Origin: a virus
Taxonomy: Duplodnaviria; Heunggongvirae; Uroviricota; Caudoviricetes
IMG/VR virus record: IMGVR_UViG_2548876867_000016
Location: 1 to 4,668 of that record
Strand: one strand, 5' to 3'
Length of the DNA: 4,668 nt
Shown here: piece after piece, positions 1 to 4,668 of the stretch
Position numbering within the stretch: the stretch's first letter is position 1
How the letters are laid out: each line of letters begins with the position of its first letter
Notes under the pieces: generated by a model
Seen by the model: the letters and a program-made list of their open reading frames with translations, nothing else
What the model was told of the DNA's origin: nothing
Databases searched by the model: none
Program-made: the position numbers and the translations under genes

Positions 1-267
1 ATGCGCAGAAAAGAATCAAACGTTAGCAGTTTGCCGGAACTCACCAATTTTGAGGTAAGCTATTCCCTAGTTACCAATGAAGTTTACTTGTCTGCATCCT
101 TCACTGATAACATGGCCTGTATACCAAACTGGCCCTTACAAGAATTTCCGGATCAACTAATATGCATTTCTCGAGCAAAAGCTATTGCCCTAATCGAAGA
201 GCTCCAGAAGACCATCGACTATATGGACGCAGGAATCGATCGACAATCAGGTAGCCTGCTCCAGTAG
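1..267 (+). CDS. Hypothetical small protein (88 aa), AT-rich; function unknown
   Basis: Open frame from ATG at 1-3 to TAG at 265-267. No recognisable motif. Lies in the AT-rich left block. The window starts exactly at this ATG, so it may be a true start or a window-edge coincidence. A second frame stays open from 255 to 440, so a frameshifted longer gene is possible. Confidence 0.4.
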   Translation: MRRKESNVSSLPELTNFEVSYSLVTNEVYLSASFTDNMACIPNWPLQEFPDQLICISRAKAIALIEELQKTIDYMDAGIDRQSGSLLQ

Positions 268-400
268 CTGGCGAGTTTTATACTCGTTCCCTGCAACAAT
301 GGGCTTTTGGTAAGGCACTCACAAATAAGGAATTCGTTAAGGCTTTTGTTCTGGAGACTCTGAAAGATACAAGGAATCAGTTGATGGCTGGTTTGATCAT

Positions 401-441
401 ACTAATTAATATATTGTCAGACTCACAATATATTAATTAGT
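401..441. promoter_or_regulatory. Near-perfect palindrome (17-bp arms, 7-bp spacer): candidate operator or protein-binding site upstream of the 281-aa ORF
   Basis: Seen directly: ACTAATTAATATATTGT (401-417) and ACAATATATTAATTAGT (425-441) are exact reverse complements around CAGACTC. It sits in the intergenic region between the 88-aa ORF and the 569 start. Function is inferred only. Confidence 0.3.
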
Positions 442-568
442 GGTAGAACATAAAACCGAGTTCTTGACTTTCAATAGCTATTATATGCGATCAACAACCT
501 TAACCACCTCCTTATATTTTATGAGATACTCAAACAATTTAAATTTATGAGCAAAGGAAAATAATAAA

Positions 569-1414
569 GTGAATAAAAATCCCTGGGATATTCCAGCATG
601 GCACGCTCTGGGCCGAGAAGCATCTTTAGTTACACAGCTCATTGGTTCTGGGGCAACAGCCATAGGTAAAGCCAATTATGCAGACAAAATAGGTGAATAT
701 TACACAGCATTTTTTGGGCTTTCTGTAGGTTTTGAGAGACTTGCTAAACTAATACTTGTTGCACACTATGCCATTGAACACAAAGGGAAAATGCCTGATG
801 AGAATATTGTAAGAAAATTTGGACATAAGCTCATTGAATTAACCAACGAGGTTGATAGTATTTCTAAAAAAATGCAACTATCTCTGAGATATTCACGTCC
901 TACACATAAAATTACCTACAAAATACTTGAATGTTTAGATTCCTTTGCTGATGCCCGACGGGGACGTTACGCAAATTTCTCCTCATTAAGCAACCCCAAT
1001 TTAACCAATAATGAACCTATTAATAAATGGTGGGGAGAAGTAGCCGAGAGTATCCTTGAAAAACATTATTATTATACAGTTGAACAAAGACGTGTTGAAG
1101 AAAATGCTAGGTTTATCAATGCCACTCTTTCACCGTATACAACGGTCATGTATATGAATGAAAGTACCAACATTATGCAAGACCTTATATCAGCATCCAT
1201 CCGTACTGGACAAAATACCATTGTTCAAAAGTGGGGAAGATTCTATTCTCTTAGCATCGCTCGTTGGCTTGCCACAGTATTAGCAGAACTGTCTGATATA
1301 GCTTCTCATAAATATGGAATAATTAGTTTTTATGGCCTTAGTGAACATTGTTGCAGTTATATAGTTGAAGATAGTTTTTTAAAAAACAGAAAAATATGGC
1401 CACTTCGCCAATAG
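569..1414 (+). CDS. Hypothetical protein (281 aa), AT-rich orphan gene; candidate accessory or defence cargo, function not recognisable from sequence
   Basis: Uninterrupted 846-nt frame. GTG start at 569 preceded by AAGGA (554-558); stop TAG at 1412-1414. Composition is clearly more AT-rich than the phage genes to the right. It converges on the invertase remnant, whose stop is 5 bp away. The predicted protein is hydrophilic with no obvious transmembrane stretch. Confidence 0.7.
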   Translation: MNKNPWDIPAWHALGREASLVTQLIGSGATAIGKANYADKIGEYYTAFFGLSVGFERLAKLILVAHYAIEHKGKMPDENIVRKFGHKLIELTNEVDSISKKMQLSLRYSRPTHKITYKILECLDSFADARRGRYANFSSLSNPNLTNNEPINKWWGEVAESILEKHYYYTVEQRRVEENARFINATLSPYTTVMYMNESTNIMQDLISASIRTGQNTIVQKWGRFYSLSIARWLATVLAELSDIASHKYGIISFYGLSEHCCSYIVEDSFLKNRKIWPLRQ

Positions 1415-1435
1415 TTAACTAGAAAATCTGCATAA

Positions 1436-1451
1436 GGGGGAGAAATCCCCC
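1436..1451. terminator. Short GC stem-loop (GGGGGA-GAAA-TCCCCC) at the junction of the convergent 281-aa ORF and the invertase remnant; possible terminator
   Basis: Seen directly: 6-bp stem with a 4-nt loop. It is 22 bp downstream of the + ORF stop. There is no clean T-run on the + strand; on the - strand it is followed by TTATGCAGATTTTCT. It lies inside the non-homologous tail of the invertase remnant frame. Weak call. Confidence 0.25.
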
Positions 1452-1624
1452 ACCTGTAATAACATAACTACTAAAATTAACACCTTGTTCGCACAACTCC
1501 TCCACCAGCACGACAAGATGCCGCACACTGCGCCCCAGCCGATCCAGCTTCCAGACAACCAGAGTGTCACCTGCCGATAATGTCCTGAGCAGTTTTTTCA
1601 GTCCCGGCCTTTCGGACTTTGTAC

Positions 1625-1712
1625 CGCTTATCTTGTCTTCAAAAATCAGCTCGCATCCTGCACAGTTCAGCGCATTACGTTGTAGATCTGTGTTCTGGTC
1701 ATTTGTTGACAC
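1625..1712. promoter_or_regulatory. Probable Fis-dependent recombinational enhancer within the 5' coding region of the invertase gene (approximate bounds)
   Basis: In Hin/Gin/Cin systems the enhancer lies inside the 5' end of the invertase gene. The minus-strand sequence here, GTGTCAACAAATGACCAGAACACAGATCTACAACGTAATGCGCTG, closely resembles the Hin enhancer-region sequence as I remember it (GTGTCAACAATTGACCAAAATATCGATTTACAGCGTAATGCGCTT). Exact Fis-site boundaries were not determined. Confidence 0.35.
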
Positions 1713-1787
1713 ACATACATAGCCAATAAGCATAGTGGATCCCTCTGACAAAAGCAGGAATGATGCCATTTGCTCGTTATTTCTGCA

Positions 1788-1813
1788 TTTTCATAAACGT
1801 TGGTTTGGGAGAA
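1788..1813. repeat. 26-bp invertase crossover site (hix/gix/pix-like), left boundary of the invertible segment
   Basis: Minus-strand reading is TTCTCCCAAACCAACGTTTATGAAAA; compare hixL TTCTTGAAAACCAAGGTTTTTGATAA as remembered. It is about 55 bp upstream of the invertase start. The inner half-site GGTTTGGGAGAA (1802-1813) is the exact reverse complement of the inner half-site of the right-hand site. Confidence 0.8.
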
Positions 1814-2161
1814 GCGGCGAAAAGGGATGTGGGTACAGGAGAAAATCAGATACCGGATATGTCAGCCTGGAAAAGAAATCCGAGTTCTAATCGCTGGAGA
1901 AAATTGCCTGATGGAACCATCATTCAAATGGGAATATCAGCATCAGGGCCATTAGGCTCACCTGTAAATATCACCCTGCCGATATCTTTCAGCAATACCA
2001 ATTATTGTGTTGTTGCATCGTACGATAATGCACGGTCAGGTGTGTCAACAATGGTTAGTTTTGCAGCATTACCTGTTTCACCATCGCAATTTTCCCTGAT
2101 GTCATCTGTGACTGAGCAAGGAATAAATCCTTTTGCTTACTGGATTGCTTTTGGAGATTGA
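1802..2161 (+). CDS. Alternative tail-fibre C-terminal cassette, promoterless and startless in this orientation; would be fused to the constant N-terminus after inversion
   Basis: The frame runs through the crossover site encoding GLGE, the same residues and frame as the expressed fibre gene at the other site. It continues AAKRDVGTGENQ...AYWIAFGD to TGA at 2159-2161, with no similarity to the currently expressed C-terminus. The ORF-track start at 1760 lies upstream of the site and is probably not used. Confidence 0.7.
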   Translation, partial: GLGEAAKRDVGTGENQIPDMSAWKRNPSSNRWRKLPDGTIIQMGISASGPLGSPVNITLPISFSNTNYCVVASYDNARSGVSTMVSFAALPVSPSQFSLMSSVTEQGINPFAYWIAFGD

Positions 2162-2164
2162 TAA

Positions 2165-2584
2165 ATGGACAGATACTTCTATTCACAAAAAGAAAATGGT
2201 TTTTTTACCGATTTAAATAAAGCACCTTCAGATGCTGTTGAGATAACCACGGATGAATGGCTGTCACTACTGGATGGTCAGGATAATGGCATGAAAATAG
2301 TCAGCAATCAGGAGGGATATCCGGTTTTGACAGAGCAACCACCTTTATCAAAAGAAAACCTTATTGCATTGGCAGAGTTGAAAAAAGGAAAACTTATTAA
2401 TGAAGCCAACGAGCACATGAACAGCAGGCAATGGCCTGGTAAAGCGGCTATTGGTCGTCTGAAAGGTGAGGAACTGGCGCAATATAATTTGTGGCTGGAT
2501 TATCTGGACGCACTGGAGCTGGTCGATACTTCCAGTGCGCCAGATATTGAATGGCCTACGCCTCCGGCAGTTCAGGCCAGATGA
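2165..2584 (+). CDS. Alternative tail-fibre assembly protein (Tfa/U-like, 139 aa), partner of the silent cassette
   Basis: ATG at 2165, 3 nt after the upstream stop. C-terminus ...LWLDYLDALELVDTSSAPDIEWPTPP parallels the C-terminus of the other assembly protein (...LDYIDAVTVTDTSTAPDIIWPELP). Position and size match the second assembly gene of Mu/P1/e14-type invertible segments. Confidence 0.8.
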   Translation: MDRYFYSQKENGFFTDLNKAPSDAVEITTDEWLSLLDGQDNGMKIVSNQEGYPVLTEQPPLSKENLIALAELKKGKLINEANEHMNSRQWPGKAAIGRLKGEELAQYNLWLDYLDALELVDTSSAPDIEWPTPPAVQAR

Positions 2585-3158
2585 TATCCGGCGCGGTGCT
2601 GGTATCTGTTACCGTCACCGCGTCAATGTAATCCAGCACGGCGTTAAGTCGGGTTGTTTCTGCCTGCGTCAACTTCCGTCCGGCCTGCAATTTCAGTTGA
2701 ATCAGACTAATGGAAGCCATTGCAGTATCAATCAGTGACTGACGCTGTGCTTCTGCCGCGTCTACTGCGGCGCTATGCTGTGCCTCGGTATCCGTCACCC
2801 ATTTCTCACCATCCCATTTATCGTATGGCGTTAACGGGGCGATAGTGGTTGTATTATCAGGGTAATCACCCGGAACTGTGATTTCTTTTGATTCTCCTGT
2901 TTCGGTGCTAAAGACGATTTCACCGCGATGGTCTGGCACATATTCCCATGAGTTAAAATCAGCAGATCGGCAGATTGCATAACCAGCTTTGTATGCGCCT
3001 GGGGCATCTAAACAGGAATATGCCGGAATGCCGACACCAATAGCAAGATATTCAGTTGAAGCTGAAATATATTCCCGACTCATGACATCAAAGTTATAAA
3101 CAGTAATTTCTCCTGCCATAGTGGCAATTAATTCACTGTTTAATTCTGCGTTATTCAT
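2556..3158 (-). CDS. Tail-fibre assembly protein (Tfa/U-like, 200 aa), expressed partner in the current orientation
   Basis: Its ATG (3158-3156) overlaps the fibre stop by one base (TAATG), suggesting translational coupling. Conserved assembly-protein C-terminal motif ...DTSTAPDIIWPELPEA. Its 3' end overlaps the convergent alternative assembly gene by 29 bp. Confidence 0.85.
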   Translation of the reverse strand: MNNAELNSELIATMAGEITVYNFDVMSREYISASTEYLAIGVGIPAYSCLDAPGAYKAGYAICRSADFNSWEYVPDHRGEIVFSTETGESKEITVPGDYPDNTTTIAPLTPYDKWDGEKWVTDTEAQHSAAVDAAEAQRQSLIDTAMASISLIQLKLQAGRKLTQAETTRLNAVLDYIDAVTVTDTSTAPDIIWPELPEA

Positions 3159-3988
3159 TATGCAGCCCTCACAATATAGTTAAAAGCGACATTTCGTGGG
3201 CGTGTTTCATTCGCACCTGCAGGTTTAGTCGTTGCCGCAACAACACCACCCTCTGTAATAGCCGGGTTGGGAATTGGGTAATTATCGAAGTCAATGGCCG
3301 GAGACAGGGGCGTGATTTGTTTTAAAATCGTGGTGCCTGTAAAACTTTCCAGAGTCTGGTCGTTAGTTCGTGAAGTCCAGATTCCCCAATAGTGGTTATG
3401 ACTGACAATCGCACCGTCCTGAAGCGTTAATAATCCCCTTCCGTTATCCACTCCACGTCCGTCATCCCAGCCACGAATAAACTCACCGCGTAAATCAGGC
3501 AATTTATTTGTCGGGTAAGCCTTTGCCAGTTCCGGGTATTCTTCAGCAGAAAAAGCCGCACCATTGCATTTCAGCCAGCCTGTCGGCGGAGTGGCGGAAG
3601 GCCACGGAACAGGCACACCAACAGGTAATGCAGAGCCTTCTCCCAAACCAAGGTTTTCGAGAGCTGTTTTCACCGTGCCATCCGATTTGATATCACCAAA
3701 CGGATTCTTGCGGCTCAGGTATTCAACAGCAAACCCCGATCCCAGCAATTCAACAAAACCGGGCAGATCACCATTATCAAGCACATCCCGTTGCGTTTTA
3801 TCACTTACAAACTGGGCCAGAGCTGCAGCAATAAAGCTGGCCTGCCGAATAACCTTATTGACTTGCGCACTGGATGCTTTCCCTGCTGTAAATCCGGATA
3901 TAAGCGCAGGCAACGCTTCCCATTCCTCCTGCGACATAACATTGGCATTTCGATCAGTTGCAAACGCTTTAAAGTCATTTTTCGCCAT
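3158..3988 (-). CDS. Tail-fibre protein: constant N-terminal part (outside the segment) fused at the crossover site to a variable C-terminal receptor-binding part with a tail-collar-like motif
   Basis: Start ATG at 3988-3986 overlaps the upstream gene stop by one base (TGATG), with GGGGAG about 10 nt upstream; an alternative in-frame ATG is at 4006. The crossover site at 3638-3663 lies in-frame and encodes ...ENLGLGEGS. The downstream part contains [24 protein letters not shown]...[11 protein letters not shown], which matches the phage tail-collar motif as I recall it. Stop TAA at 3160-3158. Confidence 0.85.
3638..3663. repeat. 26-bp invertase crossover site (hix/gix/pix-like), right boundary of the invertible segment, inside the tail-fibre coding sequence
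   Basis: Plus-strand TTCTCCCAAACCAAGGTTTTCGAGAG. The first 14 bp are identical to the minus-strand reading of the 1788-1813 site. Central AA dinucleotide at 3650-3651, as in hixL. Confidence 0.8.
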
Positions 3989-4668
3989 CAGAGTAATACT
4001 CCCCATGCCCCTACATCAAAACCACTGATGAATTCGTTATCCATGTCAAAACCAAAAAATTTAGAGCCTTCCGATGGAGTTTCCACCGAAGGTGTTTCAA
4101 TGCCCCCCGCCCATACCCCGGCGGCTTTTACTGTTAGATACCCCTGTTTAATTGCCGCAATTAACTCACGCGATACATCTGAAATATCAGTATCAGGAAA
4201 GACCCAGACCGATATCGTCATGTCCTGGTTATCGACTATCTGCATTCGCAGCCCGGATCCTGCTGTTGCCGCGTCAAGAATTGCCGGAAGCGAATCATTC
4301 CGTCCGTCCCAGTTATTAATCGCAATCTTCGCTTTAAGAATGACACGATAAGTTTCATCGCTGAGATACATGTATCCTGAATCAGGATCGTATGGTCCCT
4401 GCCATACCCCCTGATCATATCCAAGCCCGTCGGTATCCCAGCTGAAATAGACACCTGAGATAGGCTGGCTGACAACACGGCTACGTCCGATCCACAATCC
4501 AAGAATGTCAAGTTGCACACCAACCGCAGAGTCAATATCAAATGCAGTAATCAGCCCTCTGGTGGCAGCCGCAACATCAATAAGTGGCCGGGTCATCAGA
4601 TCAACATGCGCAAGAAATTTAGGTTTGGTGGCGTGGTAGTTCGTGATTAGTTCGGTGTATTTGCTCAT
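3988..4668 (-). CDS. Phage baseplate or tail structural protein (226 aa) immediately upstream of the tail-fibre gene (Mu gp48 / e14 YmfQ-like position)
   Basis: Uninterrupted 226-codon frame from ATG at 4668-4666 (the window edge) to TGA at 3990-3988, overlapping the fibre start by one base. Phage-like composition. The family assignment rests on gene order only; I do not recognise a specific motif. Confidence 0.7.

Follow-up and report, generated by a model that had tools for sequence, protein, structure and literature searches.

What becomes of a phage tail-fiber inversion switch once the invertase gene beside it is dead? The locus described here raises this question in a stretch of 4,668 nt, hereafter the window, in which a serine invertase gene that is both truncated and altered at an active-site codon adjoins an invertible segment. 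A reading made from the letters of this stretch (the earlier note) had concluded that the switch is either locked in its present orientation or served by an invertase paralogue encoded elsewhere. The cognate invertase is dead, and comparison with relatives of the prophage suggests a switch kept flippable by a Pin-family invertase acting in trans, an interpretation to which we assign a probability of about 0.78.

The window is the tail-fiber end of a ~42-kb Escherichia coli prophage located between yfhL and yfhH. Its exact sequence was found on contig AICC01000085.1 of the NCBI assembly GCA_000447085.2, beside purL-mltF-tadA-yfhB-yfhH. In the genome of strain WP3-W18-ESBL-08 (L002), the prophage of ~42 kb is seemingly complete, with genes for an integrase, DNA polymerase, lysis, terminase, head, tail, and baseplate, and with one small gene frameshifted. 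Further relatives named below are 97-3250 (L003), EC20017429 (L004), 22AR0747 (L005), and O111:H11 8D (L006), with e14 (L010) and Mu (L011) as comparison records. Features are collected in Table 1; coordinates refer to window positions, and nucleotide (nt) numbers are counted within the pin stub from its start. Three 99.6% matches deposited in a phage collection as whole or partial genomes of 'Escherichia phage vB_EcoM-...' (ON470579, ON470588, and ON470593; L013-L015) were rejected as proof of viable virions, because the host genes tadA, yfhB, and yfhH lie inside these records, which identifies them as prophage-region predictions, not virion genomes. The 88-aa ORF at the outer end of the window is common to the truncated-pin and intact-pin versions of this prophage end. 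The source contig, of 223 kb, stops 272 bp past the window end, inside the baseplate J gene, which hints that the source genome contains a near-identical repeat, probably in the form of a second related prophage, and an intact invertase could be encoded there.

Table 1. Features of the 4,668-nt window and the evidence for each
Position	Strand	Feature	Evidence or remark
1-267	+	88-aa ORF	phrog_17793 (unknown function), E 5.8e-46
283-1466	+	Replacement block carrying the 281-aa ORF 569-1414	No homology to L004 in this interval
569-1414	+	281-aa ORF without family	ORF list; Pfam, PHROGs, PADLOC, NCBIfam
1419-1733	-	Truncated PinE/Gin-type serine invertase pseudogene, 104-aa ORF	Pfam Resolvase N-terminal domain
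1649-1712	-	Putative enhancer-equivalent stretch, stub nt 22-85	Two candidate Fis cores, GTGTCAACAAATGAC and GTGCAGGATGCGAGC
1760-2161	+	Silent alternative fiber C-terminus, gp53-like C domain, without its own N-terminal part	ORF list and Pfam
1788-1813		Left 26-bp crossover site, pix/hix-type	TTTTCATAAACG TT GGTTTGGGAGAA; central dinucleotide 1800-1801
1801-3650		Invertible segment, 1,850 bp	Between the central dinucleotides
2165-2584	+	Tail-fiber assembly chaperone of the silent cassette, convergent with the 2556-3158 gene	Caudo_TAP, E 2.3e-26
2556-3158	-	Tail-fiber assembly chaperone of the cassette now expressed	Caudo_TAP, E 1.7e-32
3158-4006	-	Tail-fiber gene, 282 aa	Constant N-terminal part outside the segment; collar-domain C-terminal part inside
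3638-3663		Right 26-bp crossover site, inside the tail-fiber gene	TTCTCCCAAACC AA GGTTTTCGAGAG; central dinucleotide 3650-3651
3988-4668	-	DUF2612 baseplate-wedge gene	ORF list and Pfam

Descent of the stub from the Gin/Hin/Cin/Pin invertases is clear from the sequence that remains. Its 104-aa product, which begins MLIGYVCVSTNDQ, matches the Pfam Resolvase N-terminal domain over residues 3-89 (E 8.9e-27; profile positions 2-98 of 145), aligns to the Gin structure sequences 4m6f/3uj3 over residues 1-91 (E 1e-40), and is almost identical over residues 1-80 to K-12 PinE. The match to the intact 184-aa PinE of L004 and K-12 ends after nt 264-267, at about residue 88, where homology to Gin stops too. 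The pin-homologous part of the ORF accordingly spans 1467-1733, and 1419-1466 specifies an unrelated tail of 16 residues and the stop codon, both from DNA unrelated to pin. The remainder of the catalytic domain, the E-helix (oligomerization), and the C-terminal helix-turn-helix DNA-binding domain are absent, and the stub does not combine the complete catalytic domain, E-helix, and helix-turn-helix of a Gin/Hin/Cin/Pin invertase. Truncation alone suffices to prevent the gene from making an active invertase, since a protein without the E-helix and the DNA-binding domain cannot act. At a hairpin near the junction (GGGGGAGAAATCCCCC, 1436-1451), a terminator scan made no call.

The second defect lies in the Y-x-R-x-S motif, of which the stub keeps Tyr5 and Ser9 and has Cys in place of Arg7. 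Codon 7 is TGT (reverse complement of 1713-1715), a single base change at 1715 from the CGT of the closest alleles, both truncated (L002) and intact (L004 pinE); K-12 pinE has CGC. The alignment sets Cys7 opposite R7 of Gin (YVRVS) and R8 of gamma-delta resolvase. R8 of the Tn3 resolvase is essential, and its mutation strongly lowers cleavage and recombination (PMC2794168). These results bear out what the earlier note had said of the gene, i.e., that Cys sits at the active-site Arg position one base away from CGT, that the C-terminal half is lost from a protein of about 104 residues, and that no active invertase can be produced. Its description of the gene as doubly inactivated stands in that both defects are real and lie where they had been placed, but it overstates the second hit, because R7C struck a gene that was already dead.

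The distribution of the two defects sets their order. The same truncation junction (...VNFSSYVITGGGFLPLMQIF) occurs in L001, L002, L003, L005, L006, L016, and L017, that is, in all relatives fetched at the locus except the intact-pin L004, and PGAP labels the same gene in RefSeq relatives as 'recombinase family protein, incomplete, missing C-terminus' (pseudogene). When the block to the left of the junction served as a specific query, block and junction were found in 44 of 5,426 complete E. coli genomes, searched as chromosomes, and the junction region is common to all 44 genomes with the block. Truncated alleles in a collection of ~15 billion proteins are carried by 95, 862, 364, 112, 76, 72, and further contigs, a total of well over 1,000, and occur in E. 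coli, Shigella sonnei, and Escherichia albertii. A protein that matches the C7 version exactly is found there on a single contig, the window's own source, as opposed to 95 contigs for the otherwise identical R7 version, and Arg7 is retained in every other truncated allele examined. The shared junction and the Arg7 kept elsewhere therefore make truncation the ancestral event and R7C a late change in a dead gene (or a base-call error). R7C is functionally redundant and private to one draft assembly.

The stub differs from the intact L004 allele at 4 synonymous and 6 nonsynonymous positions; two intact alleles, those of K-12 pinE and L004, differ at 5 synonymous and 0 nonsynonymous ones. In this comparison the stub shows relaxed constraint. 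A base-call error at codon 7, which would leave the gene singly rather than doubly inactivated, is unlikely. It would account for a C7 protein confined to one NCBI contig of a draft assembly, a contig that ends 272 bp past the window, when 95 contigs carry the otherwise identical R7 protein; a real G-to-A transition is, however, equally expected in a pseudogene under relaxed constraint, and other stub alleles carry comparable changes. The stub of the enterohemorrhagic-type (EHEC) clade (O26/O111-type strains, including 97-3250 and O111:H11 8D) has Y5H, a change at another catalytic residue (compare PMC2794168), and I30F, T57P, and similar changes are present in further alleles.

Truncation was not a simple deletion. 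L004, which retains an intact pinE at this chromosomal position, is homologous to the window to either side of 283-1466 and carries, in place of this interval, a different 215-aa ORF without family and the last ~290 bp of pinE (L004 6283-7341). Since L004 differs only in the replaced block, a 1.2-kb block replaced an accessory gene and clipped pin. Exchange has also affected the other end of the locus. The L001/L016 stub diverges from that of the window over nt 1-200 (pS 0.46; pN/pS 0.08) and is identical to it from about nt 204 to the junction, and the L001/L016 fiber cassettes differ from the window's despite the same truncation junction. Because this divergence stops at about nt 204, homologous recombination has exchanged the segment and the 5' end of pin with those of other, functional pin loci. 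Cassette content within the segment is mosaic among lineage members.

All cis components of a Gin-type switch other than the enzyme's own gene appear to have outlived the truncation. The cassettes are bracketed by a 20-nt inverted repeat (1795-1814 and 3637-3656) with 19 of 20 bases matching. When extended to 26 bp, the two sites stand in inverted orientation and agree in the central dinucleotide (TT/AA). Both sites match, base for base, those of L004 and of every fetched relative except L001 and L016, where one base differs in the left site. Inversion in silico at the central dinucleotides yields an open, in-frame fiber of 238 aa, made of the constant N-terminus and the gp53-like C-terminus. 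The segment thus offers two alternative fiber C-termini (282 aa now, 238 aa when flipped) along with two Caudo_TAP genes, and what lies beside it is a stub in place of a functional cognate invertase gene.

The putative enhancer would be as intact as in functional alleles. Over nt 20-131 the stub does not differ from the intact L004 allele, and this stretch includes two G-N13-C 15-mers, at nt 22-36 and 71-85, whose centers lie 49 bp apart with TAATG in between. The center of the proximal 15-mer is 95.5 bp from that of the left site; in the Hin system, the enhancer lies ~100 bp from the crossover site (PMC3798978). R7C, at nt 19, falls 3 nt outside the proximal candidate Fis core. The claims that both crossover sites and the enhancer region remain intact thus agree with our comparison, the first by identity of the sites to those of the intact-pin relative and the second as far as identity to the intact L004 allele goes; Fis binding and enhancer function may be retained.

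Relatives that carry the same truncated gene have the segment in both orientations. The flanks of L002 and L005 show 0 mismatches (left, 2,814 bp; right, 2,392 bp), and the 1,822-bp segment between them is the 100% reverse complement. L003 and L006 form an independent pair, with 2 mismatches in total in the flanks (left, 2,814 bp, 100%; right, 2,603 bp, 99.9%) and a 1,611-bp segment that is again the 100% reverse complement. All four have the truncated gene, ~5.2-5.4 kb of flanks were compared, and in both pairs the exchange falls exactly at the central dinucleotides. Junction-specific queries returned 18 versus 3 genomes for the two orientations in the ST38-like clade, i.e., the near-identical genomes including strain ST38, and 4 versus 5 genomes in the EHEC clade. 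The segment is therefore found inverted among relatives with the same truncated gene, as judged by genome comparison. Repeated transfer of the same block into otherwise identical prophages would be a far less parsimonious account than a single post-truncation inversion in each clade, and therefore the switch has flipped at least twice without its cognate invertase. It is not locked in the lineage. Of the two outcomes foreseen in the earlier note, the comparison favors the paralogue over the lock for the lineage, both orientations standing beside the same truncated gene within identical flanks.

A locked switch nevertheless deserves to be weighed. The segment of the source genome would then be frozen with the collar-type fiber on, and the opposite orientations of the relatives would either pre-date the truncation or result from recombination of the block into either orientation. 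Exchange of this kind is known in the lineage, where L001 (pS 0.46, same junction) has acquired the 5' part of pin together with the segment by homologous recombination; 18 of 21 ST38-like genomes share one orientation, and on 13 of 44 lineage chromosomes blastn detects no second invertase. A lock would, however, require the same block and junction to have moved independently into base-for-base identical prophages, twice and in two clades, when a single inversion per clade accounts for flanks of ~5.2-5.4 kb with 0-2 mismatches around segments that are 100% reverse complements. Both sites and both fiber frames are, moreover, still intact. On balance we regard a locked switch as quite unlikely, and the segment of the source genome may likewise be flippable.

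Recombination between the inverted repeats by the general machinery offers another route to inversion. Repeats of 20 bp are shorter than the length usually required for efficient RecA recombination. A general mechanism, RecA dependent or independent, that needs no site-specific invertase would suit repeats matching at 19 of 20 bases and the lineage genomes without a detectable invertase paralogue, but it is very improbable, since two exact events in about 30 close relatives would be frequent for homology so short and since the repeats are true pix/hix-type sites that match those of intact-pin relatives exactly and have the very core on which PinE and PinQ act in e14 (PMC12529663).

An invertase supplied in trans would thus be the best explanation of flipping in the lineage. 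PinQ, encoded by prophage Qin and 38% identical to PinE, has been shown experimentally to invert the e14 P segment in trans, and the left crossover site of the window shares its core with the repeat TTGGTTTGGGAGAAGG of that segment (PMC12529663). Flipping of the e14 segment by the unlinked PinQ is a recent demonstration of the cross-complementation to which the earlier note had pointed for this family. Lineage chromosomes were searched by blastn, for presence or absence, with a chimeric query in which pinQ and three 3' halves (from K-12 pinE, gin, and L004 pin) were joined to the lineage-specific block. A second invertase-like match was obtained on 31 of 44 chromosomes, including all three flipped ST38-like genomes. 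No second invertase-like match was obtained on the other 13 in this blastn search, which covers chromosomes and invertases above about 65-70% nucleotide identity; these 13 include strain 8D (L006), in which the segment has one of the two orientations. Flipped state set against paralogue match gives 3/3 versus 9/18, which is in the expected direction and, with too few genomes, not significant. An apparent lack of paralogues in most lineage genomes, obtained with the 3' half of pinE as the sole query, was rejected; this query was too narrow, because PinQ flips e14 at 38% identity to PinE.

We therefore favor a switch of the Mu G or e14 P type, with a 1.85-kb segment, two fiber C-termini and their chaperones, and inverted 26-bp sites, that would have been orphaned in the following way. 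In an ancestor, a 1.2-kb block with an unrelated accessory gene would have displaced an earlier accessory gene and the last ~290 bp of pin, leaving behind the 5' stub and, with it, the enhancer-equivalent DNA. The stub would have drifted afterwards, R7C being one late change without added functional effect. The switch would still be flippable because everything required in cis survived, and flipping after the truncation would most probably have been carried out by a Pin-family invertase from another prophage or a plasmid.

A broader proposal is tentative and, in our estimate, possible rather than probable: this widespread and otherwise complete prophage lineage might be an obligate 'invertase borrower' that lost its own enzyme to an incoming defense-gene cassette, perhaps keeps the stub for the enhancer in cis, and varies its fiber through co-resident invertases. 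If so, host-range switching would hinge on other mobile elements in the cell. About 30% of the lineage genomes have no chromosomal invertase detectable by blastn.

Among known systems, the closest likeness is to e14/PinE of K-12, with which the locus shares the crossover core TTGGTTTGGGAGAAG and a layout in which the constant part of the fiber is followed by two C-terminal cassettes and their two Tfa chaperones, an outward-reading invertase, and an accessory gene at the prophage end. Unlike in e14, the cognate invertase is here truncated at about residue 88 and altered by R7C, and any flipping is therefore wholly trans-dependent. The element itself is another one, seemingly complete, of 42 kb, and inserted at yfhL/yfhH. 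Mu G/Gin, P1 C/Cin, and Salmonella H/Hin share with it the serine invertase family and 26-bp, imperfectly palindromic inverted sites; the Gin, Cin, and Hin systems also have an enhancer (putative here) that lies in the 5' part of the invertase gene at a distance of about 100 bp from the closer crossover site, and Mu and P1 likewise enclose alternative tail-fiber C-termini and chaperones within the segment. In contrast to the window, the invertases of Mu, P1, and Salmonella are intact, and the fiber cassettes found here are unrelated in sequence to theirs. The 'missing C-terminus' pseudogenes annotated at the same locus in RefSeq are the very same truncated gene, the annotation being silent on the adjacent switch. 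The pinH fragment of K-12 is a decayed serine invertase remnant of a similar kind.

Truncated invertase genes are routinely annotated, and both the mechanism and the cross-complementation are textbook knowledge for this family. The present additions are modest: the truncated allele proves to be common and to have originated by cassette replacement, R7C is private, and the orphaned switch is still reorienting in natural isolates. The label 'recombinase pseudogene' should consequently not be taken to mean a frozen switch, given that the adjacent fiber segment has been reoriented in natural isolates. The locus would also provide a natural example of prophage cross-talk, in which the host-range switch of one element runs on the enzyme of another, as with PinQ and e14. 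Finally, the turnover of accessory or defense cassettes at a prophage end can clip the adjoining core gene.

The slot beyond the invertase is a variable accessory-gene position, occupied at the prophage end by mcrA in e14 and by com/mom in Mu. Where e14 has mcrA, the window has the 281-aa ORF, an uncharacterized HEPN-like gene for which searches of Pfam, PHROGs, PADLOC, and NCBIfam returned no family. About 130 bp upstream of this ORF, inside the replacement block, lies a near-perfect AT-rich palindrome (401-441; ACTAATTAATATATTGTCAG / CTCACAATATATTAATTAGT) with 20-nt arms that are 95% complementary and 1 nt apart, which could be an operator or a relic of recombination.
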